From: a bacterium
GTDB taxonomy: Bacteria; Patescibacteriota; Saccharimonadia; CAILAD01; GCA-016700035
Direction of reading: 5' to 3'
Assembly (NCBI GenBank): GCA_016700035.1
Contig: CP064998.1
Coordinates: 267,848 to 331,847 of the forward strand
Length of the DNA: 64,000 bases
The notes under the pieces were generated by a model that had not been told where the DNA came from, did not search any database, and was given only the letters and a program-made list of their open reading frames with translations. This document shows, in pieces, positions 21,122 to 60,917 of the stretch. The translations under genes and the position numbers were made by a program. Numbering within the stretch: the stretch's first letter is position 1; each line of letters opens with the position of its first letter.

Positions 21122-21126
21122 TAACT

Positions 21127-31812: not shown

Positions 31813-33039
31813 ATGTTAGCTCCCGCCTATATTCGAGAAAATACTGATGAGGTGCGTACTGTAATTGCGCGTCGTGGCATGAACGTTGATTTGGATCGAT
31901 GGCTGAAATTAGATGTCCGTCGAGCCGAGCTTATTCCGCTTGTCGATACAGCTCGCTCCAAACTCAAGCTAGATGGTAAGCCAACTGAAGAGCAACTTAT
32001 TCAGCTTCAGAAAGATAAGCAAGATCTGGCTCGTCATGAAGAGGAGCTTAAGTATATTGAAGCCGAGTGGCAACGACTACTAGAAGATATTCCAAATTTA
32101 ATTGCCGACGGCACTCCAGAAGGAGGTGAAGATGCTAGCGTGGAGATCCGTACCGGCGGAACTAAGCCAGTTTTTAGTTTTCCGCCAAAGGACCACCTGG
32201 CATTGAATGAAAAACTTAACTTTATCGACTTCGAGCTTGGCGCAAAAGTAGCCGGTAGCCGATTTTATTATTTACGCGATAAAGGGGTGCGTCTATGGGA
32301 TGCTGTGCAGGCTTTAGCTAAGGCAGAATTGCATCAGCGCGGTTTTGAGCTTTTGTATGTGCCGCATATGGTAAATTCTCGGGTAGCTGCAGGTACTGGG
32401 TTTTTACCGCGTGGCGAGGAGCGGCAAATTTATCAGGCGGAAGGTGAGGATCTAAATATGATTGCTACCGCTGAGCTGCCCCTCACCGGCTTTGCTATGG
32501 ATGAGGTAATTGATGTGACTGCGCCTCTATTGCTTTCGGCATCTTCACCTTGCTACCGTTTGGAAGCTGGGGCCTATGGCAAATTTTCTAAGGGGCTTTA
32601 TCGAGTGCATCAGTTTGAAAAGTTGGAAATGTATATTTATTGCCAACCAAATGAGAGCGAACGGCTTTTAGAAGAAATTCTAGCTATAGAGGAAGCGCTG
32701 TGTGAGCGTTTAGAGATTCCGTACCATGTTATCCGTATTCCCGATGGTGACTTGTCGGCGCCGGCCTATAAAAAGTATGATCTTGAATATTGGAGTCCAG
32801 TCGATGAGAGTTATCGTGAGTTGACGAGTTGTAGTAATTGTACGGATTATCAGGCTCGCCGACTCAATATTCGTTATCGGTCAGCAGACGGTACACTGGT
32901 CCACCCACACACCTTAAATGGCACGGCGGTTACTTCGAGCCGAACCTTGATTGCGCTTTTGGAGAATCATCAAACCGAAGATGGGCGAGTCCGCCTACCT
33001 TCAGCTTTAGCAAGTTATTATGGGGAGGAATACTTATGA
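31813..33039 (+). CDS. serS: Seryl-tRNA synthetase
   Basis: N-terminal coiled-coil arm; class II motifs; 408 aa. Confidence 0.9.
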   Translation: MLAPAYIRENTDEVRTVIARRGMNVDLDRWLKLDVRRAELIPLVDTARSKLKLDGKPTEEQLIQLQKDKQDLARHEEELKYIEAEWQRLLEDIPNLIADGTPEGGEDASVEIRTGGTKPVFSFPPKDHLALNEKLNFIDFELGAKVAGSRFYYLRDKGVRLWDAVQALAKAELHQRGFELLYVPHMVNSRVAAGTGFLPRGEERQIYQAEGEDLNMIATAELPLTGFAMDEVIDVTAPLLLSASSPCYRLEAGAYGKFSKGLYRVHQFEKLEMYIYCQPNESERLLEEILAIEEALCERLEIPYHVIRIPDGDLSAPAYKKYDLEYWSPVDESYRELTSCSNCTDYQARRLNIRYRSADGTLVHPHTLNGTAVTSSRTLIALLENHQTEDGRVRLPSALASYYGEEYL

Positions 33040-33389
33040 TGAAATATACTATTGCTGCACGTAAGCTTGAGGTGGATCGCGAGCTAACGGGCTACATTGA
33101 GCGTAAAATTGCCAAATTAGACCGTTATTTTCCCAGACAACATCGGCCAGTTGGTGTGAGTATTGAGTTGCATCGTGATGAGTCCGCCACACCTGACAGG
33201 CGGTATGTTGTGTCGGCTCGTATAGAGGTTCAGGGTCCAGATATATTTGCTGAAACAGCGACCATCAATCCGCATAGTGCGATTGATATTTTAGAGGCTA
33301 AGCTTAAGGAGCAGATTCGTAAATACAAAGCAAAGCATGCACCAAAAAGAGTGACTCTAAAGCGCAGCAGAATATTGGAATCAGAATAA
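33036..33389 (+). CDS. hpf: Ribosome hibernation-promoting factor (short HPF/YfiA)
   Basis: 117 aa 'MMKYTIAARKLEVDRELTGYIERKIAKLDRYFP...'. Start ATG 33036 overlaps the serS TGA; GGGGAGGAA RBS at 33022-33030. The tracked ORF from 32838 overlaps serS and is rejected. Confidence 0.7.
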   Translation: MMKYTIAARKLEVDRELTGYIERKIAKLDRYFPRQHRPVGVSIELHRDESATPDRRYVVSARIEVQGPDIFAETATINPHSAIDILEAKLKEQIRKYKAKHAPKRVTLKRSRILESE

Positions 33390-33449: not shown

Positions 33450-36062
33450 ATGGCGATTAATCTAAAAACACTTTTTGGCGATCCAAATGCGCGTGAAATT
33501 AAAAAAGCACGAGTACGTGTGGATCGTATTAACACACTCGATTCTGAGATCCAAAAACTTTCCGATAAGGCACTGCGGTCTGAAACAGATAAGTTTAAGC
33601 AACAACTTCAAGATGGTAAGAGTTTAGATGGTATTTTGGAGCGAGCTTTTGCTGTGGTACGCGAAGCTAGTGCACGCGTTATTAACCAAAAACACTTTGA
33701 TGTGCAATTAGTTGGTGGAATTGTGTTGCACGAGGGTAAGATTGCTGAGATGCGCACCGGTGAGGGTAAAACTTTGGTTGCTACAGCCCCATTGTATCTG
33801 AACGCCTTGAAGGGTGAAGGTGCGCATTTGGTTACCGTCAATGATTATTTGGCTCGGATTGGCGCTGGTTGGATGGGGCAAGTTTATCATTTTCTTGGCT
33901 TGTCCTGCGGGGTGATTATGCATGATGCCGCCTATCTTTATGACCCTGAGTATACCGATGATCAGCACGCCGACGAGCGCTTACGACACTTGCGCCCAGT
34001 TACGCGCAAGGAAGCGTATGGGGCTGATATTACCTATGGCACAAATAACGAATTTGGCTTTGATTATTTGCGCGATAATATGGTTCAACACGTTGATCAG
34101 ATGGTGCAGCGTAGCTTGAACTTTGTAATTGTTGATGAGGTTGACTCAATTTTAATTGATGAGGCTCGTACACCATTGATTATTTCCCAGGCTAATGCCA
34201 AGCCAACCGATCGGTACTATACTTTTGCTAAAATTGCTCAGTCGCTCAAGCGGGATGAAGATTATACTGTTGATGAAAAACAGCGCGCCGTTAGCTTGTC
34301 GGAAAAAGGAATTACTAGAATTGAAAAGGCTTTGGGGGTTGATAATGTCTATGAGGCCGGACGGATTGAGGATGTACATCACATCGAGTCGGCTTTAAAG
34401 GCCGAGGCTATTTTTCAGAAAGAGAAAGATTATGTTGTTACTCCTGATGGCGAGATTGTAATTGTAGACGAGTTTACTGGGCGTCTTTTACCTGGTCGAC
34501 GCTACAGCGAAGGCTTACATCAGGCTATTGAAGCCAAAGAAGGTGTGACTATTCAGCAGGAAAGCCAAACCTTAGCCACTATTTCTTTCCAGAATTTATT
34601 CCGTTTATATGACAAGCTGGCTGGTATGACTGGTACGGCTGCTACTGAAGCTGAGGAGTTTGGCAAGATCTACAAGCTGGATGTCACCACTATTCCCACC
34701 CATCGCCCAATGGTCCGTCAAGATATGCCAGACCGGATTTATAAAACGCTAGTTGGTAAATTTCAGGCTGTGGTTGAGGATGTGCGAGAGCGTCATGAGA
34801 AAGGTCAGCCAGTACTCTTGGGTACGGTATCAATTGAGAAGAACGAACTGCTGAGCCGAATGCTAACTAAGGCTGGGGTGCCACATCGAGTTTTAAATGC
34901 TAAAAATAATGAGGCGGAAGCAGAGATCGTGGCATCTGCCGGTCAGCCAGGGGCGGTTACTTTGGCAACTAATATTGCCGGTCGAGGAACTGATATTGTG
35001 CTGGGTGAAGGTGTTAATGACCTGGGTGGGTTGCATGTAATCGGTACCGAACGTCATGAGTCGCGACGAATTGATAATCAGTTGCGTGGGCGGGCTGGAC
35101 GACAGGGCGATGCTGGCTCGAGCCAATTTTATGTTTCGTTAGAAGATGATCTAATGCGGATTTTTGGGAGTGAAAAGCTTGCTTCGATGATGGGGGCTTT
35201 GGGTCTACCGGAGGATACGCCGATAGAAAATCGGATGGTTTCGCGTTCTTTGGAGTCGGCCCAGAAGAAAGTTGAAGGTCATAACTTTGATACGCGCAAG
35301 CATTTGGTTGACTATGACGACGTGATGAACCAGCATCGTGAGATTATTTATGCTCGTCGCCGACGCGTACTCAAGCAAGACTCACTCAAAGATGACATTT
35401 TACCGTTGTTTGACGCGGAGTTTCAGGCGCTTTTAGAGTCTCATACCGACCCACAAACTGAAATTTTAAATATTACTACGCTTGCCGAAGCGGTGCGTGA
35501 TGTTATTCATTTGCCGAAAGACTGGGAGAAATCAGTTGAGAGTCGTGATAAAGAGGCTCTAGCAACGGAGTTTATGGGGATAACCAAAGATCTATATCGT
35601 TCGCGCGAGATGGAATTTGGCGATGAGGGTGTGATGGTGATTGAGCGTTTAGTGAACCTCAAGACGATTGATACGGCCTGGCTGGAACATCTGGAAGCAA
35701 TGGATCATTTGCGTGACGGCATTGGCTTGCGTGGCTATGGGCAACGTGATCCGCTGGTTGAATATAAAGCTGAAGCTTTTCGAATGTTTAAGATTTTGAC
35801 ACGTCGAATTGATTCAGAGATAGTCCATACCTTATTTAAGGTACGAGTTGATATTACGGCTCAACCTGAAGATGAGGCAATCGAAACCGAAATTACTCAG
35901 GGAGCACAGCAGGCTGTGACGTCTGGACCAACTGAATCTGGTAAGGTGTCACGACAAAAAGCCCTCAGAGATTCGGAGCGTTCTGGGCGTGAAGTGGGGC
36001 CAATTCGGCGGACGGCATCAATTACTAAAAAGAAGTCTAAAAAGAAGAAGAAGCGACGCTAG
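33450..36062 (+). CDS. secA: Preprotein translocase ATPase SecA
   Basis: 870 aa with Walker A '[14 protein letters not shown]', DEAD-like '[21 protein letters not shown]', and a basic C-terminal tail. Confidence 0.9.
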
Positions 36063-36101: not shown

Positions 36102-39100
36102 ATGGTAGAAAAACAAGGCCCTAATATTGGCGACGCCACACCAGAAGGTGTTGGGAAACTAGCTCGTGAACTGCGCGAGATTGAGCAAAAGATGCAAAGA
36201 GCCTTTGATGAGCGCGAGTGGGCGATTGAAGATCCGGATATTGATCGAGGTAATGCTTCGCTGGAGCGGGCTGATACAGACTTAGAACGCTTGAAGAGTG
36301 AGCGGAGTCGTGTTTTAAACGAAATGGCCGGTCGGTTTGAGGGCCAGAGTGGTGATGAGCCCCTAATACCGGTTAAAGATGGAACCACTCGGCCAGAAGT
36401 TCAGCCAACACTAACTACCAAGCCCGAAATTAGCCCCGATGACCCCTATCGCTTTGCCGGCCGACCAACTGATGAGATAAAGCGTAGCTTGCGTGGAATG
36501 AAGGGCTGGCGCGGTGTTGAGACACGAGTTAATCGTCGATTTGGTGATTCGTTGGGTGGTAGTGTGGCGCCAGCAGAGATTTTTCTTAATGAGTTAGCAC
36601 GCGAAGTAAAAGATGGGATGAGGCCTGTTACGCGGTCGCTGTGGTCCGAATATTATGATCGCTATAATCCAGACGGTACGGTGAATCCCGAGCCAGCTAA
36701 AAAGCAACCAAAAAATAATTCAGATAAATATCAGCCACAGGCTCAAGCTAAAAAAGCTCAAACTAAGACGCAAGGAACAAAAACTACTCAGCGAGTTAGG
36801 TATTTTGACCCAGATGATCACGATCCAGCCGATGAAGCCGAACGGTATAATGTGCCACCTGAAGAGTGGAGGCAATCAACTCACGACGAGGTCTTGCACG
36901 GTGGTAGTGAAAGTGGTTATGATGAGGACGATATATTAGATAGGAGAGACAAAATGCGATCATCTGGAGGAACTGGACCTGAAACTGGAACTGAACCTGA
37001 ACCTGACTCAGAGACAAGAGATCCGATGCGCCATCTCGACAGTGATTTAAGTGGTGACTTGCGTGATATCCTGGAAGGGCGCAGTGGTGGTGAAGAGCAA
37101 AGGCGTGCGCTAGAAGATAATGACACTGAGGCTTTCTATGGTGCACCACCTAGCCCGATTGCCAATGAAACTGACCGTATTATTGATGAGAATGATACCG
37201 AAGCTTATTATTCAACTTCACGTGGCACGCAGACAACTAGAACTGGAGCGTCAGGTGTGCAGACTAATTTTGATCGACCCACTCCACCAACCCCAGCTGG
37301 TAATACCGAAGCCCAGCCTCAGCCCATGAGTCGGGTTGAGCGTCGGGAGTCGATTGAGAATAATTATGAGTTCGAAATTGGTGGCGTGACGTTTAAAAAT
37401 GGTGAAATAGTTGATTATACGGAAGCCGATGGCGATAAGGCTCGACATATGGTAATTCAGAAGATTGGCGAAAATCCACCCAACTTAAAACTACTTAATT
37501 TGGAAACTGGTACAGAATTTGCTATTAGCGAGCAGAGTATTTCGCGTATTGAAAAGCTGCAAGATGCTGGTGGCAGGCCGCCTGAAGATGATGATGACGA
37601 TGGTGAAGGTAGAAGGCGTGAAGGTGGAGAGCCATACCAGCGTGGAAGCTACATTGATGGAGTACCGAAGGTCCCTGCTCCAGGTGAGGTTTTAGCTCTT
37701 GCTGAAGGGGCACGCTTAAATGTTGACGCACAAATTCAGGCAGTAGCTCAGGCCAAGGAGCAGCGGGAAAAATTCTTTGGTCGTAATGAGCCTGATCAGG
37801 CAGGGCTGGATTCTGCTAACCAAGGCCTAGAGAATGCTTATGCGCAGTATATGGATAATTGGTCGGCTGTATTGGCGGACTATCGTGGAGTTGAAAACGA
37901 CTTAAATGATTATAAGACAGACATGCAGGAGAAAATTACAGTATTAGATCAGTCTATTGCACGACTGGAGGCCAATACTACTCTGCCACCAGAGTTGCGT
38001 CAATATCGGATTAATATTCGTCGTGAGCGTATGCTAGAGGCTCGCGCAGCTATACAGAAGTGCGATCAGCAAATTGAAGCCCTACATCGAGGTGTGGAGA
38101 GTGTGGTGAGGCAAATTGAAATAGAAATGACGCTGGAGATGGCGCAGACTCGCTCAAAGATTGAGGCAGCCCAGTGCGCACTCAAGGTGGGTACTAAATC
38201 TGAGAAATTCCGTACTTTCTGGCGGTCTAAGAATGGTCGTCGGGCGCGTTTGGCAGTTGGTGCCGCCCTTGGTATAACTGGTGCGATGATTGCCATGACA
38301 GGTGTTGGCGCTGGGGTGGGTAGTGCTATGGTAGCTGGAGCCGGTGCTGTGATGCGCGGTACAGGTGGTTTTATGGCTACTGAAGCTGGCTGGAATATGT
38401 TGCATAATCGCCGAGCTGATAAGGCGGATTTGCGTGGCCGCCAAGATAGATGGGGTGCTCAGACGGCTAGAACACAATTTGAGGCCGGCCGTGATATGGG
38501 CTATATGACTGAACATGCCGAGGCTTTAGGGGCTGAGAATATGTCTGAAGCTGAACTGGCGGCATTTTTAGAGGCAAATGCCGGGGCGCTATATGGTGAG
38601 CGAATACTACGTGGTGCTCTAGCTGGTAATGTAGAATCATCTGCGGCGGTGGCTGGCGCATTATTGCAATCTCAGCTCGATCGCGTTAATAGTGACGCTA
38701 AGTCTAACCGTCGAGCTAAGCGAGGAGCCGCCGTGGTTGGTGTGGCGGCAGCTGCAGCACCGTTTGTTCTCAGGCATTTCCTAGATGGTCCACCAACCCA
38801 TGAGCCACCAAAAGGCCCACCAAAGCCACCTACTCCAGATTCTCCATATGATCCTAATGCGGCCCGTATGAGGGGGATCTTGAGTACCGATGAGAGCGCG
38901 GCTCAGAACTGGCAAACCATGACAGATCACTATCGCACGTTAAGTCCTTCTGAGCAGGCTGTATATAAAGCTGCAGAGCAAGCCTACGATAAGGGCTACG
39001 AAGCCGCATTAAAGGGCATGCACTTGTCGCATGCTGAATTAGATAGGGTTAACTTTATATTAGGTCGAGGATCCTTTGATGTTGGTAATGAGCAGATGAC

Positions 39101-39203
39101 GCAAATTACGCGTAGTATCGCACAGCAAGTTCAGAATGGCGCATCAACTGAGAGTATTTTAAAGCTTTACGGTATGCCGACAGATCGCTTAACTGGAGCT
39201 TGA
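36102..39203 (+). CDS. Giant (1033-aa) hypothetical protein: N-terminal coiled-coil, acidic low-complexity middle, coiled-coil, glycine-zipper membrane segment, Pro-rich C-terminal domain
   Basis: Long uninterrupted ORF with no signal peptide. 'GAALGITGAMIAMTGVGAGVGSAMVAGAGAVM' and 'AAVVGVAAAAAPFVL' hydrophobic segments. Short repeat 'DNDTEAFYG/ENDTEAYYS'. No recognisable enzymatic motif. Confidence 0.55.
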   Translation: MVEKQGPNIGDATPEGVGKLARELREIEQKMQRAFDEREWAIEDPDIDRGNASLERADTDLERLKSERSRVLNEMAGRFEGQSGDEPLIPVKDGTTRPEVQPTLTTKPEISPDDPYRFAGRPTDEIKRSLRGMKGWRGVETRVNRRFGDSLGGSVAPAEIFLNELAREVKDGMRPVTRSLWSEYYDRYNPDGTVNPEPAKKQPKNNSDKYQPQAQAKKAQTKTQGTKTTQRVRYFDPDDHDPADEAERYNVPPEEWRQSTHDEVLHGGSESGYDEDDILDRRDKMRSSGGTGPETGTEPEPDSETRDPMRHLDSDLSGDLRDILEGRSGGEEQRRALEDNDTEAFYGAPPSPIANETDRIIDENDTEAYYSTSRGTQTTRTGASGVQTNFDRPTPPTPAGNTEAQPQPMSRVERRESIENNYEFEIGGVTFKNGEIVDYTEADGDKARHMVIQKIGENPPNLKLLNLETGTEFAISEQSISRIEKLQDAGGRPPEDDDDDGEGRRREGGEPYQRGSYIDGVPKVPAPGEVLALAEGARLNVDAQIQAVAQAKEQREKFFGRNEPDQAGLDSANQGLENAYAQYMDNWSAVLADYRGVENDLNDYKTDMQEKITVLDQSIARLEANTTLPPELRQYRINIRRERMLEARAAIQKCDQQIEALHRGVESVVRQIEIEMTLEMAQTRSKIEAAQCALKVGTKSEKFRTFWRSKNGRRARLAVGAALGITGAMIAMTGVGAGVGSAMVAGAGAVMRGTGGFMATEAGWNMLHNRRADKADLRGRQDRWGAQTARTQFEAGRDMGYMTEHAEALGAENMSEAELAAFLEANAGALYGERILRGALAGNVESSAAVAGALLQSQLDRVNSDAKSNRRAKRGAAVVGVAAAAAPFVLRHFLDGPPTHEPPKGPPKPPTPDSPYDPNAARMRGILSTDESAAQNWQTMTDHYRTLSPSEQAVYKAAEQAYDKGYEAALKGMHLSHAELDRVNFILGRGSFDVGNEQMTQITRSIAQQVQNGASTESILKLYGMPTDRLTGA

Positions 39204-39230
39204 TAAGTTTTTAAGGTAAAGGAGTAAAAT

Positions 39231-39569
39231 ATGAATCCAGTACAGACAAATCAACCAGATATTTTCACCAGGCTCGGTATGGCTTCGGCTAGCGATGAGC
39301 AAAAACAACAGTTAGCCGAGCAGTTGGCAGACCTGACTATGACACGAGTTTTGAGTAAAGTAGCTGACCAAATTTCAGAAGAGCAGATGGCCGAACTGGA
39401 GCGCTTAATCGACGCCGGTGGCGATCAGGTGGATGATCGATTGCGTCAGTTAGTACCAGGTTATGATGAGCTAGTGGCCTCAACTGCTCGAGAGGTTGGC
39501 GATAAATTGGTTGCCGATCAGCAGGCTGTACTTGCTAAAATGCGTGAAAAAGCCGCTCAGCAACACTAA
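39231..39569 (+). CDS. Small all-helical hypothetical protein (possible partner or chaperone of the giant protein)
   Basis: 112 aa; strong RBS AAAGGAG 7 nt upstream; predicted helix-turn(GG)-helix; 27 nt after the giant ORF. Confidence 0.45.
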   Translation: MNPVQTNQPDIFTRLGMASASDEQKQQLAEQLADLTMTRVLSKVADQISEEQMAELERLIDAGGDQVDDRLRQLVPGYDELVASTAREVGDKLVADQQAVLAKMREKAAQQH

Positions 39570-39666
39570 GAATAACCAATAAAAACATTGACCATGCTAT
39601 GTATTTATGGTATGGTTCTTTTGTTATTTGTACCTGACAATCTACGACCCTACGAAGGGAAGAGCA

Positions 39667-41097
39667 ATGAACGACAAGAGTATGAGCTGGGAGGAATTCC
39701 AGCAGGCCGATCCGGCTGAGCTGGTTGCTCAGTGTGGTGCGTTGTCGGATGCCGATTCGAACGGCACTAAGTCTGGCACTACACCTCGACGCGTCCAGCT
39801 CAAGGCTGGAACGCTGGTGGCACGCCTCATCGAGGCTGACTCAACGCTAGACGAGGCGTCGGCACTGCGAGTGCTCGAGCAGATCCTCAATGAGGGTCGG
39901 ACCGAGCCACAGCAACAGCCAGTAGTCTTGCGTAGTGGCAGTCAATTCGTGCCGGCTTCGCTGGCTGATGCGGTTGATGTCTACATCGCCGGTCTGTCAG
40001 TTGAGTCGATGACTTCGGATGCCAATCTGGCTGAAGAGTCGCACGAAGGCACTTCAGAATCCAGCGATGAGCCACCGCCTTTTTACGGCGATGTGCCCAC
40101 GCAGGATTTTCAGGTTCCGAATGAAGATTCGGATCACGACGAGCCGATCTACGTCGTGGAGTTGCTCGGCGATGAGCCATTGTCCTTGGACGAGCTCATC
40201 ACTCAAGCCAAGCAGAGGTTGTTACCAGTAGCCAATCAGGCCTACGAATATCTGCATAACAAGCAGGAGCATGAGGCCAATGCGGTTGCTGGCGAACTAG
40301 CCAAGATGCTGTGGTACTTTGCCACCGTCATATACCGCACTGCCGGCTGGGATGACGAGCGCATCGAAGCTCAGCTCTGCAAGGGTAAGGATAGCGAAAT
40401 CGTAACCGATCCCAATCGGATGCGGTTTGCTTGGTTCCAGCGGACGGCGCACGCCATGTTCCGTCAAGAGACCAAGACGCCAGAGCAGTTCTTGGCCGAG
40501 TTCAAGTTCCCAGGGCTAGCTCGACGTAAGCCAGCGCCCGCGCAGCAGCCGGATAATCAGGAGCTTCCTTCTGATGAAGATCTGGCCGATGTGGTGAGCG
40601 ATACGGCTTGGGCTGATGAGGGTGATGCACTACCGCCAGCTGATGAGGCTGAGTCGGTGGTGATTGAGCCTGGCCCGATCGTTGTCGACGAAGTTGATGG
40701 GCGTCGCCGAGTTTCTAGTGGCGATATCCCTCCGCATCCGCGTCATATTGTGTATGGTGGCGGGCCGAAGCCTTCGACTGAGAGGTCGGTGCGCGAGCGG
40801 CTCGATGCTTTGCGTGATAGCTTGGCAGCCACGGTTGACGATGCGGCAACGGATGATTCCGATATTGAGACGCCGGCTAGTGACGAGTCGCCTTTGGGTG
40901 GCGCAATCGGTGGGCGAGAGCGCTCGGATGAGTCGATTCTGGCCAACCTACCGGATGAGGTGGTGCTTGCGGCCATCGATACTGTTCTGGCGGACTCCGA
41001 CCCAGAGCAGTGTTGGGCCTATCGTTCACCGCTAGCGGTGCGTGAGGAGGCCGACCGGCGTCTACTTGTGGAGTATCGTCAGCTGAGTGCTGCTTGA
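39667..41097 (+). CDS. Acidic hypothetical protein (moderately high GC)
   Basis: 476 aa from ATG 39667 (GAAGGGAAG upstream). Asp/Glu-rich with no TM segment. GC ~55-58 %. Confidence 0.45.
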   Translation: MNDKSMSWEEFQQADPAELVAQCGALSDADSNGTKSGTTPRRVQLKAGTLVARLIEADSTLDEASALRVLEQILNEGRTEPQQQPVVLRSGSQFVPASLADAVDVYIAGLSVESMTSDANLAEESHEGTSESSDEPPPFYGDVPTQDFQVPNEDSDHDEPIYVVELLGDEPLSLDELITQAKQRLLPVANQAYEYLHNKQEHEANAVAGELAKMLWYFATVIYRTAGWDDERIEAQLCKGKDSEIVTDPNRMRFAWFQRTAHAMFRQETKTPEQFLAEFKFPGLARRKPAPAQQPDNQELPSDEDLADVVSDTAWADEGDALPPADEAESVVIEPGPIVVDEVDGRRRVSSGDIPPHPRHIVYGGGPKPSTERSVRERLDALRDSLAATVDDAATDDSDIETPASDESPLGGAIGGRERSDESILANLPDEVVLAAIDTVLADSDPEQCWAYRSPLAVREEADRRLLVEYRQLSAA

Positions 41098-41188
41098 TAT
41101 TTCGCTGGGGTGGGCTGGGTAATACCAACTCGCCCTATTTTTTTGTTAACAATCTTTGGCATAAGCATATTGACTTTATTAAAAACTA

Positions 41189-41217
41189 TTGCAAAATTAC
41201 TACTTTTATGCTATTAT
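41189..41217 (+). promoter_or_regulatory. Sigma70-like promoter (TTGCAA-17-TATTAT) in an AT-rich spacer immediately upstream of the high-GC gene pair
   Basis: Read from the sequence; it sits 65 nt upstream of ATG 41282. Confidence 0.4.
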
Positions 41218-41281
41218 GCGTGAGTAATCGTACCTAGCCCGGGTGTCAGAGACTCCCGGCACAACAACCCCAGGAGGGGAA

Positions 41282-42073
41282 ATGACCAATCGCACAGCAA
41301 GGACTGAGGCGGCTGAGATCGCCCTGGCCCGGCACCACCGTGCCGAGCATGACAACTTCGAGCGTCAGCTCGAAGAGGTGGGCGTCGAGATCGCCCGCTT
41401 GAACGCGGCCATCGCCGACCGGAACGACGAGCTGACCCAGGCGGCCAGCCAGACGTTCCGAACCATCCTCCGTGAGGAGGTGGCACAGTTGGAGCGCCAG
41501 CTGGCTGAGCGTGGCGCCGAGCAGCAGGACATCCTGCAGCAGCTCGGTACGCTCCGCACCACCGTGGCGAACCACGACCGTCGCCTCGGCACGCTGGAGA
41601 GCAGGACGACCTGCCTGCGCGGCGATGTCGACGGGCTGCAGGCCCATTCTGAGGCGCATGCCTCGGCGATCTCGCAGATCCAGGCTGCCAACGGCTGGAT
41701 CCCGCCGGCTGCTGCTGCGGTCGCCGGCTTCATCACCTACCTCTTCATCGAGTGGGTGGTGGACGCTTGGCGCGTTGGCCAGGTGTCCACCCACATCCAG
41801 TGGGCCTGGACTCTGGCTGTCGCCGCGATCGTTGGGCTCATCACGAGCCTGCTGACGGGTGAAGGGCACATCAGTGCCCGGACTAGCTCGTCGGCATCGG
41901 CGGGAGCGGGCACCACACCCGCACTCCCACCGGCCGACCAGCCGGTTACCGCCACACAGGTGGTGGCAACACCGGCACCGGCACCGGCAGGTCAGGTGGC
42001 ACCGCCACCCCCTCCCACTGGTCAGTTTCCGACCGTGCAGGCTGCAGCCGCAGCCGTCGCACAGACGAACTGA
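41282..42073 (+). CDS. Hypothetical coiled-coil membrane protein with Ala/Pro-rich tail (very high GC)
   Basis: ATG 41282 preceded by AGGAGGGG. Long coiled-coil, then 2 TM helices, then a PAPAPAG/PPPPPTG tail. ~65-68 % GC by eye. Antisense ORFs in the track are high-GC artefacts. Confidence 0.5.
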   Translation: MTNRTARTEAAEIALARHHRAEHDNFERQLEEVGVEIARLNAAIADRNDELTQAASQTFRTILREEVAQLERQLAERGAEQQDILQQLGTLRTTVANHDRRLGTLESRTTCLRGDVDGLQAHSEAHASAISQIQAANGWIPPAAAAVAGFITYLFIEWVVDAWRVGQVSTHIQWAWTLAVAAIVGLITSLLTGEGHISARTSSSASAGAGTTPALPPADQPVTATQVVATPAPAPAGQVAPPPPPTGQFPTVQAAAAAVAQTN

Positions 42074-42079
42074 CTCGCT

Positions 42080-42125
42080 CCTCTAGGGCCTTCGGGCCCT
42101 AGAGGAAACTCTTTCAAGTTTTATT
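42080..42125 (+). terminator. GC-rich hairpin terminator
   Basis: Perfect 11-bp stem CCTCTAGGGCC-TTCG-GGCCCTAGAGG (tetraloop) followed by a T-rich stretch. Confidence 0.5.
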
Positions 42126-42238
42126 CTGGCCTGGAGTACAAATCTCTGGTAAAGCAGAGGTAAGTTCTCAAAGTCAGAACCAGAACCTGAACATCCATGT
42201 GTCGCCGAGAGCGACACCGATCCGAAAGGAGGTGCGCC

Positions 42239-43348
42239 ATGCGCGCACCCAAGTCACCTCAGCAGAAGTTCTTCTTTGGGCTTCTGGGGGCAGCGGCAGC
42301 ACTGCTGCTAGCCTTCCCCGTCATCACGGCGATCGCCGACCCAGGTCCGCCCGATGCCGGCGCCGACCCAACCACCACCACGGTGGCTCCGGCCACGTGT
42401 GGCGCCACGCCGCACTTCTTTGCTCGCGATACCGCAGGTAACCAGTTCGGCCCTCCGGCTCCGGAGGATCCGGCCAACGTGGCAGCCACGCAGGCGGACT
42501 TCGCCGCGCGACGCTGCGCTGACGCCGCCCTATTGGTGGGTGACTCCGAGTATCTCTTCAACGAGTTCTCGGATCCCGCCATCCGCGTCCAGAAGACCAT
42601 CGATTTGATGGCCAACCCGGACGCCTGGTCTCTGGCTGAACTCCGCTTCCAGGCGCGTCTCAACGAGGCCACCAAGGTGGAGATCGTCGAGATGGGTGGC
42701 CGCTATCAGACCATGGACATGGTGGACCAGGGGAGAATCATCCCTGAAATCTACCAGATCCCGGTCGAAGCCAAGCCGTTCCGCGTGATCCGCTACACGT
42801 TCCCGGACGGGTCCGTGAAGCAGTTCAAGCTGAACTGTGGGTATCAGCCGGTGGAGCAGAACTTCCCGGCCAGTGTGCCAGGATCGGGAGCTCCGCCGGC
42901 GCCGAACCAGCCGTCGCACCCGGTCAAGCCGGCAAAGCCCGGTAAGCCCGGACGGCCGACCACCACGGTGCCGACAACGGTCAAGCCCGGCAAGTGCGCC
43001 GGACAGACCGGGCCGTACTGTGGCAAGCCAGACTCCGGTCCGGAGTTCGACCCCGTCAACTCCAACCCGCAAAAGCCGACCCCGGGCTACGTGCCCGGCA
43101 ACGCCGAGCGGGTGATCGACCAGCAGAACCGAGACGCGGAAGCGACTCGGAACGGCGCCGATCCCTACCGGCCGACCCAGTACGGCACACCCGGCACGGG
43201 CACTGGCTCTGGCGTCACCACGCCATCTGGTGCAACCGACGGGCCGTCTGGCACCACCACCGGTGGAAGTGCCGGGGCCTCCAACCCCGACATGAACACC
43301 AATGTCGGTGGCCAGACCAATACGGGCACAGTGGCTCCGCCTCCGTGA
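42239..43348 (+). CDS. Secreted hypothetical protein with Pro/Thr/Gly-rich C-terminal region (very high GC)
   Basis: ATG 42239 preceded by AAGGAGG. Signal peptide 'FFFGLLGAAAALLLAFPVITAIA'. Globular middle with Cys pairs. Low-complexity PTTTVPTT / GTGTGSG tail. Confidence 0.5.
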   Translation: MRAPKSPQQKFFFGLLGAAAALLLAFPVITAIADPGPPDAGADPTTTTVAPATCGATPHFFARDTAGNQFGPPAPEDPANVAATQADFAARRCADAALLVGDSEYLFNEFSDPAIRVQKTIDLMANPDAWSLAELRFQARLNEATKVEIVEMGGRYQTMDMVDQGRIIPEIYQIPVEAKPFRVIRYTFPDGSVKQFKLNCGYQPVEQNFPASVPGSGAPPAPNQPSHPVKPAKPGKPGRPTTTVPTTVKPGKCAGQTGPYCGKPDSGPEFDPVNSNPQKPTPGYVPGNAERVIDQQNRDAEATRNGADPYRPTQYGTPGTGTGSGVTTPSGATDGPSGTTTGGSAGASNPDMNTNVGGQTNTGTVAPPP

Positions 43349-43385
43349 CCGTGGCCTGAGCTTTCGGATGTTCAGGTCTTTCTAG

Positions 43386-43425
43386 CCCCAGGGCGCCTCG
43401 TGCGCCCTGGGGTTTTTCCTTTTAT
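43386..43425 (+). terminator. Strong intrinsic terminator closing the high-GC block
   Basis: Perfect 11-bp stem CCCCAGGGCGC-ctcgt-GCGCCCTGGGG followed by TTTTTCCTTTTATT. Confidence 0.6.
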
Positions 43426-43461
43426 TGGGTTAAGCCAGAAATAAAAGCATAACCAAAACCA

Positions 43462-43490
43462 TTGACAAAATACTATAATTCTGATACAAT
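43462..43490 (+). promoter_or_regulatory. Sigma70-like promoter TTGACA-17-TACAAT upstream of the LPQTG protein gene
   Basis: Consensus -35 and near-consensus -10 with 17-nt spacing; ~150-nt leader to ATG 43642. Confidence 0.4.
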
Positions 43491-43641
43491 ACTTAAGTCA
43501 TTCACACCAGGTGTGATGGAGTTACTTAACAGCGCGAATATCGTTTCCCAACAGAAGCAAAAGTTCTTGACGACTGTAAGAAATTATCAAATAACCGTAA
43601 GCTTTTTCCGCTCAAATTTTGAGTGGTGAAAGGAGAAGCAC

Positions 43642-44829
43642 ATGAAAATTTCGGCTAAGCTCCGTTATGCTGTGCTGGCAACTGCTCTTATTGCAGTTCC
43701 GGCCGTAGCTGGTGCTACTAGTCAGGTTGCCTTAGAGGGTCGTACTGCAGTTGCTAACCAAACTGCTGGTGCTACCACCTATACAAAATCGACTAGTGCT
43801 AAAACCGATGAAGTGGTAAAAGTACAGATTTGGTACCACAACAAAGAAGAAGCCAACTCTGGTAAAGTAGCAAACAATCTTAAAGTAAAAATCGATCTCC
43901 CAACTCAAACTGGCAAAAGCCAAGTTGTTAAGGGAACCATAAGTGCTGATAACGCTAATACCGTTACCGACACTGCAAACGTCAACCTCGCTCTGGATCA
44001 GAGCCGTCTGGAATATATTCCAGGTTCCGCTCAGTGGCGCCACAACAAGGGTACCAACGAGCAGCCCAACTGGGTAACTGAATCTATCAGTGACCAAGTT
44101 GTTGGAACTGGAATTGTTCTTGAGAACGCAAAGCCTTGCTTCAACTACGAAGCCAATGTTACAGTACTTGCTCGGGTTAAAACTCCTGCAGTTTCGATCA
44201 CTAAACAAGTTCGTGTACTTGGTGAAAAAGAGTGGAAGACTGAAAACACCGCCAAAGCTGGTGACACACTTGAGTACTTGATTTCCTACAAAAACGAAGG
44301 CAATACAACTCTCAAGAACGTTATCATTGCTGATAACATGCCAGCTAACGTTACCTACGTACCAGGTACTACGATGATTAAAAATGCATCAAATCCAACT
44401 GGTACAAAAGTAAACTCTGACAATATCACCAAAGGTGGTATTAATGTCGGAAATTACACCCCAGGTAGCAATGGTTTTGTATGGTTCCAGGCTAAGATTG
44501 ATTCAAATCTAAAACCAGGTAACTATACCTTCAAGAACGTTGGTATTGTGAAGCCAGAAGGTATGGGTGAATACTTCAATGCAGCAAAAACTACGGTTGT
44601 TGTTGCACCGAAGCCAACTACCCCACCTACTACTCCACCTACGCCAATTACTCCAAAGCCTACAACTCCAGTAACTCCGGTAACCCCTGAGCAGCCTAGC
44701 TTGCCTCAGACTGGTATCGAAACTGGCGTAGCAGGTCTGTTGGGAACGGGTGGTCTCACCTATGCTGGTTATTTCTACCGAAAGAGCCGTAAAGGTTTGA
44801 GTACTGCGCTTAAAAACGTTGTAAAGTAA
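43642..44829 (+). CDS. Cell-wall-anchored protein with a DUF11-like repeat domain and an LPQTG sortase signal
   Basis: Signal peptide. 'GDTLEYLISYKNEGNTTLKNVIIADNMPANVTYVPGT' is a DUF11-type motif. PT-rich linker, then 'LPQTG', a TM helix and 'YRKSRKG'. Confidence 0.65.
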   Translation: MKISAKLRYAVLATALIAVPAVAGATSQVALEGRTAVANQTAGATTYTKSTSAKTDEVVKVQIWYHNKEEANSGKVANNLKVKIDLPTQTGKSQVVKGTISADNANTVTDTANVNLALDQSRLEYIPGSAQWRHNKGTNEQPNWVTESISDQVVGTGIVLENAKPCFNYEANVTVLARVKTPAVSITKQVRVLGEKEWKTENTAKAGDTLEYLISYKNEGNTTLKNVIIADNMPANVTYVPGTTMIKNASNPTGTKVNSDNITKGGINVGNYTPGSNGFVWFQAKIDSNLKPGNYTFKNVGIVKPEGMGEYFNAAKTTVVVAPKPTTPPTTPPTPITPKPTTPVTPVTPEQPSLPQTGIETGVAGLLGTGGLTYAGYFYRKSRKGLSTALKNVVK

Positions 44830-44934: not shown

Positions 44935-46023
44935 ATGAAACCAATAATTGATCGTTTAACGAGGCTTTTAGAGCAGGTGCAGGGGGCAATCAGCCAACTT
45001 CATCTGGACTCTGAGCAAAAGGTGCTTGACGAGCTGGAGGCTCGCATGCTGGCGCCTGATTTTTGGTCCGACCAGGGTGAGGCGCAAAAAATTAGCCAAG
45101 AAGTGGCTATGCTTCGAAAATTTATTGATAGCTGGCGCGTTATGGAAGATTCGATTAAAACCATGCTTGAACTGGCTCAGATATCTGACGAATCATTGCT
45201 TGACGCTTTAACTAAGTCTACAGACGAGATTGAAGACTCGGTTCGGCAGATGATGATTACTGTTAAGCTGGCTGGTGATTATGATAAGAATACGGCTATT
45301 GTGCAGATTTCGGCTGGAGTTGGTGGCACAGATGCTCAAGATTGGGCTGAGATGCTACTTACGATGTACTCGCGAGCAGCTGAAAAGCTCGATTTGGTTG
45401 CTAGTTTGGTGGATATCTCACGCGGTGAAGAGGCGGGGATAAAGTCGGCCACGCTAGAAATTACTGGTCCATTTGCTTTTGGTAAGCTTAAGAGTGAAAA
45501 AGGGGTGCATCGGCTGGTGCGTCTTTCACCATTTAATAGTGATAGCTTACGTCAGACCAGTTTTGCGTTGGTAGATGTGGTACCAGAAATTCCAATGGAG
45601 GGAATTGATTTAGATGAGAAGGATCTGCGGATTGATGTGTATCGAGCTGGTGGACATGGCGGCCAGAGTGTTAATACAACCGATTCAGCGGTGCGAGTTA
45701 CTCATCTTCCGACCGGAATTGTGGTTTCTATTCAAAATGAGCGCTCGCAACTCAAAAATAAGGCTAAGGCACTATCTATTTTAGGGGCTAAGTTGGCGGA
45801 ATTGGCGCGTGAACAACATCTGGAATCAATCGCTGAATTACGTGGTAAAGTACAGTCAGCTGATTGGGGTCAACAGATCCGGAGCTATGTCTTACACCCT
45901 TATAAAAAGGTTAAAGATCATCGCACTGGCTATGAAACCAGCGATACCGAAGCGGTTTTAGCTGGTGAGATTGAGCCATTTATTGAAGCTTACTTATTAA
46001 AGACTCTCGATAAAAAGTCATAA
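44935..46023 (+). CDS. prfB: Peptide chain release factor 2 (single uninterrupted frame)
   Basis: RF2 tripeptide 'SPF' in 'RLSPFNSDSLRQTSFA'; GGQ motif 'AGGHGGQSVNTTDSAVR'; 362 aa with no internal frameshift site. Confidence 0.85.
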   Translation: MKPIIDRLTRLLEQVQGAISQLHLDSEQKVLDELEARMLAPDFWSDQGEAQKISQEVAMLRKFIDSWRVMEDSIKTMLELAQISDESLLDALTKSTDEIEDSVRQMMITVKLAGDYDKNTAIVQISAGVGGTDAQDWAEMLLTMYSRAAEKLDLVASLVDISRGEEAGIKSATLEITGPFAFGKLKSEKGVHRLVRLSPFNSDSLRQTSFALVDVVPEIPMEGIDLDEKDLRIDVYRAGGHGGQSVNTTDSAVRVTHLPTGIVVSIQNERSQLKNKAKALSILGAKLAELAREQHLESIAELRGKVQSADWGQQIRSYVLHPYKKVKDHRTGYETSDTEAVLAGEIEPFIEAYLLKTLDKKS

Positions 46024-53814: not shown

Positions 53815-53847
53815 TAAAGTATTCTAATGAGGGAGCTATACTTTTTA

Positions 53848-56481
53848 ATGAACCAACTAATAGCAAAGTTAATACATCAGCCATCAACCAATCTCAAAAC
53901 TAATCTATCTACAACTACCCAGTCCATCAAAACTAACAAACTATCTCTAGCCTTCCGTCTAACTCTAGGCCTAGTCTTATTCTCTGCTGTACTAATAGGC
54001 ATCAACCACCAATCCAAAGCATTAGCAGAAGTAAACAACAACTACACCTGGACCCAACGCAAGAATGGGTTTGTTGGCGATCAAATGAGCTGGTCCTCTA
54101 TCACCAGCTCCGCCGACGGCACCAAACTAGCTGCTGTAGCTAGGAACGGCTCCATCTACACCTCGGCTGATTCTGGCACCACCTGGACTGAACAAACGGC
54201 GGCTGGCTCCAGAGACTGGCTCTCCATCACCAGCTCGGCTGATGGCACTAAACTAGTTGCTGTAGTAAGCGGTGGCTCCATCTACACCTCCACCGACTCC
54301 GGCACCACCTGGACAGAGCAAACGGCGGCTGGATCCAGATACTGGATCTCCATCGCCAGCTCCGCTGACGGCACCAAACTAGCTGCAGTAGATAATGACG
54401 GTGGCTCCATCTACACCTCGGCTGATTCTGGCGCTACCTGGAGTGAACAAACAGCGGCTGGATCCAGATACTGGACATCCATCGCCAGCTCCGCTGATGG
54501 CACTAAGCTAGCCGCTGTAGCAAATGGCGGCAGCATCTACACCTCGGCTGATTCTGGCACCACCTGGACAGAGCAAACGGCGGCTGGATCCAGATACTGG
54601 ATCTCCATCGCCAGCTCCGCTGACGGCACCAAACTAGCTGCAGTAGCAAATGGTGGCTCCATCTACACCTCGGCTGATTCTGGCACCACCTGGACAGAGC
54701 AAACGGCGGCTGGATCCAGATACTGGTACTCCATCACCAGCTCCGCCGACGGCACTAAGCTAGCTGCTGCAACATACGGCGGCTCCATCTACACCTCCAC
54801 TGATTCTGGCGCTACCTGGAGTGAACAAACGGCGGCTGGCTCCAGAAGCTGGTACTCCATCACCAGCTCCGCCGACGGCACTAAACTAGCTGCTGTAGCT
54901 AGGAACGGCTCCATCTACACCTCTACTGACTCTGGTGCCACCTGGACAGAGCAAACGGCGGCTGGATCCAGATACTGGATCTCCATCGCCAGCTCCGCTG
55001 ACGGCACTAAACTAGCAGCCGTAGCATATAACGGCTACATCTACACCTCCACCGACTCTGGCGTTACCTGGACAGAACAAACCGCGGCTGGCTCCAGAAA
55101 CTGGTACTCCATCACCAGCTCCGCCGACGGCACCAAACTAGCTGCAGTAGATAATGACGGTGGCTCCATCTACACCTCGGCTGATTCTGGCGCTACCTGG
55201 AGTGAACAAACAGCGGCCGGTTCCAGAGACTGGTCCTCCATCACCAGCTCCGCCGACGGCACTAAGCTAGCTGCTGCAACATACGGCGGCTCCATCTACA
55301 CCTCCACTGATTCTGGCGCTACCTGGAGTGAACAAACGGCGGCTGGCTCCAGAAACTGGCGCTCCATCACCAGCTCGGCTGATGGCACTAAACTAGTTGC
55401 TGTAGTAAGCGGTGGCTCCATCTACACCTCCACCGACTCCGGCACCACCTGGACCGAACAAACTAGCGCTGGCTCCAGAAGCTGGCAATCCATCACCAGT
55501 TCCGCCGACGGCACCAAACTAGCTGCTGTAGTAAATGATGGCTCCATCTACACCTCGGCTGATTCTGGCGTAACTTGGTTATTGGTAAGTTTAGCTCCAG
55601 ATATTTACCCGCTTACTGCTACATATGCCAGTTCTAATAGCCAGCTATTTATTGGAGGAGCCAAGATAATAGATATGGATAATATGATATTTGAAAATGC
55701 CCTCTACACTTCAAATGACAACGGTCAGACTCTTACCGATATATCTATGCCAAACTCTTCAAAGTATTGGATCTCCATCACCAGCTCCGCTGACGGCACC
55801 AAACTAGCTGCTGTAGTAAGTGGCGGCTCCATCTACACCGGCAGCATAGAAGGCGAAGTAGTAGATCCACCAACTCCACCACCAAGCTCCAACACCGCTC
55901 AACTCACCACCCCCACTAGCCCTCTCTCTACCTTCTCTCTAAAACCAGTATCTCTAACCACCCCCACTGGCACTACCATTAACTCTAGCTCTACTGTCCC
56001 AGAATCTTCCCTAGTAACCCAAGACAACAACAACCAATACCCACTAGGCCTAGTAAACTTTAGCTTTACCACTAACCAAAGCTCTAACCAAGTAGTATTA
56101 AACTTTGAAACAGACTTAAAACCAAACCAAGTAACACCCAGAAAGTATAATCCTAACTCTAAGACCTATACCAACTTACCTACTAACGCTAATGTATCTA
56201 TAACCGAAACCACTATAAATAATAAACACTATCTAGTTCTAACCTATACCATCATAGACAATGGTGAACTAGACCTCGATCCAGCAGCTGGTACTATCTC
56301 TGACCTAGTCGGACTAGCCGTATCTAACTCTACCTATGACCAACTAGCGAGTACTGGGGAGAATACTCAACCAATACTACTAGCTACGGTACTATTTCTA
56401 GTAAGTGGCATAATTATAGTTGCTGGAGTTCTAGGGGTATTTAGTAGAAGGAAGATGCATATCCAAGTGGGAAGGCAATAA
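53848..56481 (+). CDS. BNR/Asp-box repeat beta-propeller surface protein with stalk domain and LASTG sorting signal (intact paralogue)
   Basis: ~14 blades 'SIYTS(A/T)DSG(A/T)TW(S/T)EQTAAGSR.W.SI(T/A)SSADGTKLAAV'. PT-rich linker and stalk '…LTYTIIDNGELDLDP…'. Ends 'LASTGENTQPILL' + TM + 'SRRK'. Start is set at the M conserved with 63646. Confidence 0.65.
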   Translation: MNQLIAKLIHQPSTNLKTNLSTTTQSIKTNKLSLAFRLTLGLVLFSAVLIGINHQSKALAEVNNNYTWTQRKNGFVGDQMSWSSITSSADGTKLAAVARNGSIYTSADSGTTWTEQTAAGSRDWLSITSSADGTKLVAVVSGGSIYTSTDSGTTWTEQTAAGSRYWISIASSADGTKLAAVDNDGGSIYTSADSGATWSEQTAAGSRYWTSIASSADGTKLAAVANGGSIYTSADSGTTWTEQTAAGSRYWISIASSADGTKLAAVANGGSIYTSADSGTTWTEQTAAGSRYWYSITSSADGTKLAAATYGGSIYTSTDSGATWSEQTAAGSRSWYSITSSADGTKLAAVARNGSIYTSTDSGATWTEQTAAGSRYWISIASSADGTKLAAVAYNGYIYTSTDSGVTWTEQTAAGSRNWYSITSSADGTKLAAVDNDGGSIYTSADSGATWSEQTAAGSRDWSSITSSADGTKLAAATYGGSIYTSTDSGATWSEQTAAGSRNWRSITSSADGTKLVAVVSGGSIYTSTDSGTTWTEQTSAGSRSWQSITSSADGTKLAAVVNDGSIYTSADSGVTWLLVSLAPDIYPLTATYASSNSQLFIGGAKIIDMDNMIFENALYTSNDNGQTLTDISMPNSSKYWISITSSADGTKLAAVVSGGSIYTGSIEGEVVDPPTPPPSSNTAQLTTPTSPLSTFSLKPVSLTTPTGTTINSSSTVPESSLVTQDNNNQYPLGLVNFSFTTNQSSNQVVLNFETDLKPNQVTPRKYNPNSKTYTNLPTNANVSITETTINNKHYLVLTYTIIDNGELDLDPAAGTISDLVGLAVSNSTYDQLASTGENTQPILLATVLFLVSGIIIVAGVLGVFSRRKMHIQVGRQ

Positions 56482-56483
56482 CT

Positions 56484-58052: not shown

Positions 58053-58160
58053 GTTAGCAAGGTATATTTGAATAATTCAAATGATGCTTTAGGGTGTTGA
58101 CTTGCTTGCTATGTTTTCTAGCTATATCTTAGAATTGGTATTAGTAAATAAGGTGGGTGG

Positions 58161-60833: not shown

Positions 60834-60917
60834 ATAGAAGACCTTGTTTATTGGTATTAAACTAGTTATGATTACATGGAAGATATATTAATCGTAGTCA
60901 GTTAAGGATAAGGACAT

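Follow-up and report, generated by a model that had tools for sequence, protein, structure and literature searches.

Several described systems resemble in part the locus considered here, a block of six genes (g1 to g6) located between secA and prfB in a 64-kb stretch of DNA (the window) from a member of the Saccharibacteria (TM7), whose SecA is 81–88% identical to those of uncultured Candidatus Saccharibacteria metagenome-assembled genomes. Genomic and pathogenicity islands are, like part of this block, compositionally deviant stretches encoding surface or secreted proteins in a core neighbourhood. The pneumococcal capsule and pspA regions and the neisserial surface loci are recombining cassettes of naturally transformable bacteria and are not GC-enriched. 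Caulobacter PodJ and PopZ and the terminal-organelle proteins of Mycoplasma are scaffolds of bacteria that attach by one pole. Sortase-anchored fibrillar adhesins and pilin-like proteins can be built from CLIPPER (DUF11) domains, whose Ig fold is CnaA-like, of the isopeptide type and typically found in the stalks of adhesins (PMC12617251). Between its secA and prfB, Southlakia epibionticum has a gene of the insulinase family, a gene for a hypothetical protein, murD and htpX (PMC10633639 Table S1). The same genome encodes, after infB, the 767-aa hypothetical protein SEML1_0161 followed by the DUF5663 proteins SEML1_0162 and SEML1_0163 of 142 and 144 aa; according to transposon sequencing, SEML1_0163 is growth-defective, and SEML1_0161 and SEML1_0162 count as essential from the second time point onwards (PMC10633639 Tables S1, S2). 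The block of the window is a vertically inherited, clade-specific Saccharibacteria cluster, not an island, and three of its genes, g3 to g5, are GC-rich in their coding sequences (CDSs) only.

The preliminary description of this DNA, whose six open reading frames (ORFs) between secA and prfB are all present as called, had taken a contiguous hpf-secA-prfB as the reference order and had read the block as an inserted accessory island that should show presence/absence polymorphism. Comparison with relatives, for which loci retrieved by means of SecA were searched with the six proteins by tblastn and inspected ORF by ORF, with additional look-ups, contradicts both points. Every relative whose sequence covers the region has the block at this place, which amounts to more than 15 independent assemblies whose SecA identities decrease from 98% to about 62% (loci L081, L082, L087, L088, L005, L007, L003, L004, L008, L009, L011, L016, L039, L065 and L085; L001 has a variant form). 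SecA identity is 98% for L081, 87% for L005 and L007, 77% for L003 and L004, 67–70% for L008, L009, L011, L039 and L065, and 62–65% for L016; these carriers include a 701-kb JGI contig (L081) and a 1.19-Mb chromosome (L016). In L085, the order is secA-[329, 199, g4-like, g5-like, g6-like]-prfB-ftsE-ftsX-pcsB-ctpB. Furthermore, identity in the g5 domain correlates with SecA identity (rho 0.40, p = 0.001). Other genes follow secA in the deeper Saccharibacteria L015, L020 and L026 (SecA about 63%), and secA and prfB are adjacent in no Saccharibacteria locus examined, S. epibionticum having four intervening genes (PMC10633639).

A recent horizontal acquisition of the block as an accessory island or effector module could be proposed, as the block breaks the gene order hpf-secA-prfB of Firmicutes, includes compositionally foreign genes (g3–g5) and codes for proteins that are secreted or lie at the surface, and as the same slot is occupied by other genes in the deeper Saccharibacteria. 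Such an acquisition is very improbable, the block being syntenic in every covering relative. There is no tRNA gene in the 64-kb window, a domain scan of the block revealed no integrase, transposase or other mobility domain, and the only direct repeats flanking the block are short and at chance level, so that a mobile element was rejected; likewise, tblastn against phages detected no homolog of g3 or g5. While the composition of g3–g5 is atypical for the genome, that of g1, g2 and g6 is native, and the spacers hold native AT-rich promoters that are kept across species. Unlike genomic or pathogenicity islands, the block is thus syntenic clade-wide and devoid of mobility genes, tRNA and repeats, and its deviation is directed towards higher GC, concerns only three CDSs and is upheld by an ongoing substitution bias instead of decaying. 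Since this deviation is common to all relatives and at or near equilibrium, it gives no sign of recent transfer. What remains of the preliminary interpretation is the clade-specificity of the block, its partly aberrant composition and a plausible function at the surface or in host contact. A sudden GC jump within a metagenome-type sequence might also betray an assembly chimera including a GC-rich stretch from another organism, but the same layout recurs in more than 15 assemblies obtained independently in different studies, some of them long contigs or chromosomes, and both the spacers and the genes on either side are native and uninterrupted, which leaves a chimera next to no probability.

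All six genes are under purifying selection (dN/dS 0.01–0.19 against L081) and their dS values against the same locus are mostly 0.16–0.52, similar to those of the neighbours (g6 being lower, 0.096); they are therefore genuine genes. They form three modules, namely g1 and g2, then g3, g4 and g5 separated by conserved spacers, and finally the sortase-anchored g6 with its own promoter. The starts of g3, g4 and g5 were refined: each refined start has a ribosome-binding site (RBS) and agrees with the gene calls in L081.

The GC content and GC content at third codon positions (GC3) are 0.58 and 0.61 for g3, 0.68 and 0.78 for g4, and 0.66 and 0.79 for g5, compared with a median GC3 of 0.41 in the window (median absolute deviation 0.04; 44 ORFs). 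The excess is confined to the CDSs of g3–g5, the spacers between these genes having a GC content of 0.42–0.52. It also affects the first two codon positions, as GC1 and GC2 of g4–g5 are 0.64–0.70 and 0.56–0.57 versus 0.59–0.60 and 0.37 in secA and prfB, and it flips codon choice in the GC-rich genes (ATC 88% versus 15%, TTC 78% versus 8%, AAG 100% versus 53%). The relatives show a peak of about 0.65–0.68 GC at the same position, with AT-richer spacers, whereas their background GC3 ranges from 0.33 (L009) to about 0.59 (L085). Among 14 loci, all GC3 outliers (at least 0.20 above the locus median) are located at the g3–g5 position, with the sole exception of ORF 7385–7846 of the window. This ORF, the only other GC3 outlier of the window, lies on the minus strand and encodes a 153-aa protein that resembles a multi-pass membrane protein (GC3 0.71). 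Members of the g5 family encoded elsewhere have the GC3 of their background (0.29, 0.33 and 0.56) and, therefore, the protein family is not intrinsically GC-rich. No description of a GC-rich region of this kind in Saccharibacteria was found in the searchable literature.

In order to polarise substitutions, synonymous third-position changes were assigned by majority rule among the window, L081 and L087, with the flanking genes as reference. The rate of changes from A/T to G/C (W→S) per W site is roughly 0.505 in g4–g5 and 0.188 in the flanks, a 2.7-fold difference (Fisher p = 9e-11), and that of the opposite changes (S→W) per S site is 0.198 versus 0.239. The equilibrium GC3 implied by these rates is 0.72 for g4–g5 and 0.44 for the flanks; the observed values are 0.80 and 0.42. 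As parsimony error in GC-rich sequence inflates S→W changes, the test of W→S bias is conservative. The first and second codon positions display a W→S bias in the same direction (rate ratio 0.54 versus 1.25). Whatever the background, g3–g5 are thus kept at about 0.65–0.68 GC by a substitution process that is currently GC-biased.

Two explanations that do not involve any particular force acting on nucleotide composition have to be weighed against these data. The GC richness might be the remnant of an ancient transfer of g3–g5 from a high-GC donor, slowly ameliorating since then. The frequent use of GCC, GGC, ACC, CCG, CTG, ATC, TTC and AAG, the preference for arginine over lysine and the richness in alanine, proline and glycine resemble those of high-GC genomes, and the cultivated Saccharibacteria have Actinobacteria as hosts (PMC10633639), which could have been donors. 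However, GC3 is unchanged between close strains in spite of a dS of 0.39–0.52, and lineages sharing only 26–38% identity in g5 all hold about 0.65–0.68 GC. Neutral decay at the rates of the flanks predicts an S→W:W→S ratio of about 90:18 for g4–g5, compared with the 75:48 observed (p = 3e-9). Moreover, the five contexts of g5-family genes examined, within the secA-prfB cluster or elsewhere, are all Saccharibacteria-like, and members located elsewhere have a normal GC3. This scenario is therefore hardly credible. Translational selection, i.e. the codon bias of very highly expressed genes, has slightly more in its favour and is still improbable: promoters and terminators are strong and conserved, C-ending codons dominate the two-fold families and g6 has a milder NNC preference. 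Nevertheless, rpsB, tsf and frr do not show such a shift (TTC 0%, ATC 18% and AAG 48%, versus 80–100% in g4–g5, g4 being without lysine codons), GC1 and GC2 are also raised with lysine replaced by arginine, and the W→S bias extends to positions 1 and 2. The substitution pattern, the first two codon positions, the replacement of lysine by arginine and the codon usage of rpsB, tsf and frr were therefore taken to exclude both an old-transfer leftover and ordinary translational selection. They point to a force acting at the nucleotide level, either selection for GC in these CDSs or biased gene conversion.

The second of these forces supposes recombination, and the region is mosaic. The nearest neighbour switches along the region among the window, L081 and L087: the window groups with L081 in the 3' part of g1 and in g4, and with L087 in g3, prfB and the ABC gene, whereas L081 and L087 are 98–100% identical to each other in the 3' half of g5 and in the spacer behind it. 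At a larger distance, g5, the next spacer and g6 of the window are nearer to L003 than to L005 and L007, the opposite of what is found for SecA. As judged from these sequences, g3–g5 diverge rapidly, and homologous recombination moves them from strain to strain, with breakpoints close to the ends of the genes. The g3–g4 spacer is 79–80% identical to that of L005 and L007, compared with 76% for the secA CDS, 41% for g3 and 55–58% for g4, and the conserved spacers are plausible homology anchors for the swapping of divergent cassettes. This organisation recalls the recombining surface-antigen loci of pneumococci and Neisseria, which also combine divergent alleles within conserved flanks, mosaicism and fast protein evolution. 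It differs from them in that two of the three cassettes (g3 and g4) are predicted to be mostly cytoplasmic and in the strong GC enrichment of the cassettes. Diversifying pressure probably acts on these variable genes. A targeted variable region of the diversity-generating retroelement type was rejected, since divergence spans the whole CDSs; dual coding or a strongly constrained RNA structure in g3–g5 was also rejected, since dS is not reduced.

GC-biased gene conversion at a long-lived recombination hotspot, where mismatch repair of heteroduplexes would favour G/C, is consistent with the fixation bias towards W→S at synonymous and probably also non-synonymous sites, the rise in GC at all three codon positions, the raised dN/dS and the direct mosaicism with breakpoints close to gene borders; in addition, Saccharibacteria are naturally competent (PMC10633639). 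On the other hand, mosaic ancestry extends to neighbours of normal GC and, therefore, recombination alone does not explain the GC peak: g6, prfB, the ABC gene and g1 also switch ancestry at normal GC3. Gene conversion does not readily account for an equal absolute GC in genomes of very different background, nor for boundaries that sharply match the CDSs, a weak point because the spacers are under strong constraint. To our knowledge, the effects of gene conversion on GC3 reported in bacteria are of a few percent, not of +0.4, and this also counts against it. Gene conversion is thus a serious but somewhat unlikely candidate. Selection on the nucleotide composition of these CDSs or of their mRNAs is the explanation towards which we lean slightly, and it is put forward only tentatively. 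A further reading would be that g3–g5 are tuned to a high-GC actinobacterial host, in or on which their products or nucleic acids would act, and that this maintains their GC of about 0.66 together with a host-like codon and amino-acid usage. The near-absence of lysine in g4 would then allow the protein to evade lysine-directed host modification such as pupylation, and the rapid exchange of cassettes would reflect an arms race with host defences; such a tuning appears very doubtful.

The proteins encoded by the three GC-rich genes differ in their predicted features. The g3 protein is acidic (pI 4.3), largely disordered, predicted to be cytoplasmic and conserved only in islands; it is hypervariable, with about 29% amino-acid identity to its L005 counterpart despite 87% for SecA, and a dN/dS of 0.18. 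The g4 protein is predicted to consist of a cytoplasmic coiled coil, two transmembrane (TM) helices and a Pro/Ala-rich tail. It has no lysine in 263 aa, and lysine counts in the orthologs compared (window, L005, L007, L003, L008, L009 and L085) are 0/263, 0/267, 2/245, 2/241, 0/228, 1/240 and 1/329, for an arginine content of 6.4–9.2%. As g5, which has the same GC content, retains 2.4–3.8% lysine in most lineages, this depletion exceeds what GC bias alone would give; it is also stronger than that of g3 or g5. The g5 protein harbours an N-terminal signal or anchor, a globular domain of about 160 aa (four helices and a beta sheet, with an invariant LxCGxQPV), a Pro/Thr-rich stalk and a conserved Cys motif. 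An exhaustive profile search of 1.84 billion proteins retrieved only 165 cluster representatives of this domain family, and a look-up of the exact g5 protein of the window in databases returned no entry. Some proteins at the g5 position (L001 20348–21397; P0014 and P0016) keep the stalk, the Cys motif and the C-terminal tail and have a different N-terminal domain; this diversity of N-terminal domains preceding a constant tail, visible in the protein sequences, indicates domain swapping. Among the five contexts examined, the g5-family genes that lie outside of the secA-prfB interval are again followed by a gene encoding a g6-like LPXTG protein, and g5-like and g6-like pairs were observed in L083, L084, L085 and L086; g5 and g6 are therefore a recurrent pair.

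The g6 protein, whose gene has a GC3 of 0.37, carries a signal peptide (hydrophobic residues 3–31 behind a basic N-terminus), Ig-like domains of the CLIPPER/DUF11 type (TIGR01451, 47.0 bits for a cut-off of 24; PF24595, 33.4 for 27; PF01345, 25.1 for 24.6) and a C-terminal sorting signal that comprises LPQTG, the segment GIETGVAGLLGTGGLTYAGYFY and RKSRK (TIGR01167, 17.2 bits for a cut-off of 15.9). It thus shares its signal peptide, DUF11/DUF7619-type Ig-like domains and LPXTG motif with sortase-anchored CLIPPER adhesins and pilin-like proteins (PMC12617251). Unlike these, it is short (395 aa, about two domains), lacks a long tandem-repeat stalk and a recognised adhesive tip, and invariably comes with a partner of the g5 type, a membrane or secreted protein. 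Nucleotide identity of g6 among the window, L081 and L087 reaches 96–99%, with a dS of about 0.05–0.10 versus 0.2–0.5 for the neighbours, which suggests that the gene recently underwent a sweep or was exchanged.

The first module begins 39 bp past secA, with no terminator in between and a spacer GC content of 0.26, and g2 begins 27 bp after g1. The composition of g1 is normal (GC3 0.38) and its dN/dS is 0.11. According to AlphaFold2 (AF2) models and topology prediction, the N-terminal half of the g1 protein would include a cytoplasmic helical hairpin, a small helical domain, about 230 disordered acidic and basic residues and a small beta domain. The C-terminal half would comprise a 170-residue coiled coil (helices 527–696), a glycine-zipper TM hairpin (715–747) and a third TM segment (872–895), followed by a Pro-rich linker and a helical C-terminal domain, as deduced from AF2 secondary structure, hydrophobic segments and the alignment of orthologs. 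The g2 protein is helical and of the DUF5663 type: its PF18908 score (19.6 bits) is under the gathering cut-off of 23.7, its ortholog in L081, the locus closest in SecA (98% identity), is listed under PF18908, and four DUF5663 paralogues in the clusters of relatives score 24.8–31.9 bits, above this cut-off (overall range 23–32 bits). In the clusters of relatives, DUF5663 proteins recur next to large proteins. Thus, L001 (13068–17912), L013 (12987–17789) and L012 (15568–20457) carry a further gene for a protein of about 1600 aa, with a DUF5663 gene ahead of it; this gene replaces g1 in L001 and L013 and accompanies a g1-like gene in L012, and the product of that of L001, the one scanned, has no Pfam match. 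Similarly, L009 and L039 encode proteins of 750–785 aa, 140–142 aa (DUF5663) and 112 aa, reminiscent of SEML1_0161-0163 by size, order and annotation; the set of S. epibionticum is located after infB and not after secA.

The protein descriptions made beforehand hold for the long helices and glycine zippers of g1, the 476-aa length and acidity of g3, the high GC of g4 and g5 (0.66–0.68) and the DUF11/CLIPPER domains and LPXTG motif of g6. The absence of a catalytic motif is also upheld, no enzyme family having been found in Pfam, NCBIfam, PADLOC or PHROGs: scans of the six proteins gave only DUF-type or anchor matches, or coiled-coil noise. Searches of the PDB with single sequences and profiles yielded nothing beyond a marginal match to the anchor region of g6, g1 has no match in Pfam, PDB or Foldseek, and g1–g5 match no known family, solved structure or fold. 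Nor did remote homology searches point to housekeeping roles.

The claim that the block carries its own promoters and strong terminators is supported by near-consensus promoters upstream of g3, g4 and g6, all three TG-extended, and by hairpins after g3, g4 and g5, which are conserved across species (Table 1). The stems after g4 and g5 show covariation, i.e. compensatory changes. No clear promoter was found for g5. A small hairpin in its leader (42111–42196) is conserved and shows one compensatory change, and the CA-rich block GTCAGAACCAGAACCTGAACATCC of this leader is invariant. This block can pair with a T-rich stretch located past the g4 hairpin, although covariation does not back a long stem; the leader may be a processing or regulatory RNA element. 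The leader of g6 (43491–43641, about 150 nt) includes blocks conserved across species such as AATAACCATAAGC; it has no match in Rfam, which otherwise returned only terminator look-alikes.

Table 1. Positions in the window of the genes and expression signals of the secA-prfB region
Feature	Position	Strand	Basis
hpf (ribosome hibernation factor), upstream anchor	33036..33389	+	Pfam Ribosomal_S30AE E = 3e-15; 117-aa gene called in L081
secA	33450..36062	+	ORF; similarity to Saccharibacteria SecA
g1, 1033 aa	36102..39203	+	ORF
g2, 112 aa	39231..39569	+	ORF
g3 promoter TTGACC-17-TATGGT, TG-extended	39588..39616	+	Consensus scan; kept in five genomes
g3, 476 aa	39667..41097 (ORF start 39607; refined ATG 39667)	+	RBS, gene calls of the relative
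g3 terminator, hairpin and T-tract	41108..41144	+	Sequence; arms kept in five genomes, perfect 11-bp stem in L005
g4 ultraconserved promoter block TGGCATAAGCATATTGAC ... TTGCAA-17-TATTAT	41157..41217	+	Consensus scan; kept in five genomes
g4, 263 aa	41282..42073 (ORF start 41243; refined ATG 41282)	+	RBS, gene calls of the relative
Hairpin after g4, weak terminator or stabiliser	42080..42105	+	Compensatory double changes in 7/12 pairs
g5 24-nt leader block GTCAGAACCAGAACCTGAACATCC	42173..42196	+	Unique in the window; in L003, L005, L007, L081, L082
g5, 369 aa	42239..43348 (ORF start 42197; refined ATG 42239)	+	RBS, gene calls of the relative
Strong intrinsic terminator after g5	43384..43424	+	13-bp stem, 10 GC pairs, T-tract; compensatory changes
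g6 promoter TTGACA-17-TACAAT, TG-extended	43462..43490	+	11/12 consensus matches; kept in five genomes; leader of ~150 nt follows
g6, 395 aa, LPQTG	43642..44829	+	ORF
prfB, downstream anchor	44935..46023	+	PCRF and RF-1 domains

The block is surrounded by a cell-envelope and division neighbourhood, mreBCD-pbp2 ... hpf-secA-[g1-g6]-prfB-ABC-murA-ftsEX, the genes upstream being mreB, mreC, a mreD-like gene, pbp2, greA, lysS, serS, hpf and secA, and those downstream prfB, an ABC ATPase gene, murA, ftsE and ftsX. Taken as a whole, the products of the block can be viewed as follows: they would form an envelope-spanning assembly, i.e. a surface, attachment or polarity scaffold. The N-terminus of g1, g2, g3 and the coiled coil of g4 would be its cytoplasmic parts, g1, g4 and the g5 anchor would cross or hold to the membrane, and the C-terminal domain of g1, g5 and the wall-anchored g6 would be exposed outside. 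Such an assembly, inferred from predicted topologies, fits them as well as the envelope and division neighbourhood. A role at the surface or in contact with the host is plausible in view of the sequences, given the sortase-anchored CLIPPER protein, its secreted partner, the hypervariable cassettes and the mosaicism among strains. Like PodJ, PopZ and the terminal-organelle proteins, the block would bring together a large membrane protein that contains a coiled coil, a disordered region and an external domain, and partners that are acidic, proline-rich and disordered; no sequence or fold similarity with them was detected, and the analogy is one of working only.

On balance, the whole is probably best described as a vertically inherited cluster of three modules, with actively GC-biased g3–g5, whose products form an envelope-spanning assembly. 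Several points weigh against this description. For none of the proteins of the block could a homolog of known function or fold be detected, so that the functional model draws on architecture and context only, and the AF2 models have a mean predicted local distance difference test (pLDDT) score of 50–56, with shallow alignments. The polarisation of substitutions relies on three taxa and parsimony in a recombining region, which makes the rates rough. The recombination of g6, prfB and the ABC gene without GC richness weakens biased gene conversion as a cause. As for selection, we know of no mechanism that selects for GC in three particular genes and, for either of the causes proposed for the GC bias, we know of no bacterial precedent of this size.

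Other features of the window were observed outside of g1–g6. The C-terminus of SecA (36020–36062) is a run of lysine and arginine, and prfB is one unbroken ORF of 362 aa that can be read through with neither an in-frame stop nor a +1 frameshift site. Large ORFs with near-identical N-termini form two paralogous sets, at 15524–23178 and 53827–63506: the ORFs at 15524 and 60918 share MPTKTPSLIN..., those at 21127 and 56484 start with V.N.RL.KLT.L.RL.SL, and each set includes a Thr-rich protein of 700–880 aa. Local GC skew is reversed at 18–24 kb and 54–58 kb.

Compositional outliers are routinely taken as the result of recent horizontal transfer; g3–g5, the strongest GC3 outliers of the loci examined, are inherited vertically. 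The main interest of the locus lies in this conserved, CDS-confined and actively maintained GC-rich patch in fast-evolving genes. If biased gene conversion is its cause, the patch would stand out among bacteria as an unusually clear case at gene scale; if selection on nucleotide content is, these mRNAs or this DNA would have to meet a hitherto unknown requirement. For the Saccharibacteria, whose attachment to their hosts is still largely unexplained, the block provides several targets located next to secretion and division genes, namely cassettes that are hypervariable and recombine, an adhesin-like protein anchored by sortase and a g1/DUF5663 module that may be essential.

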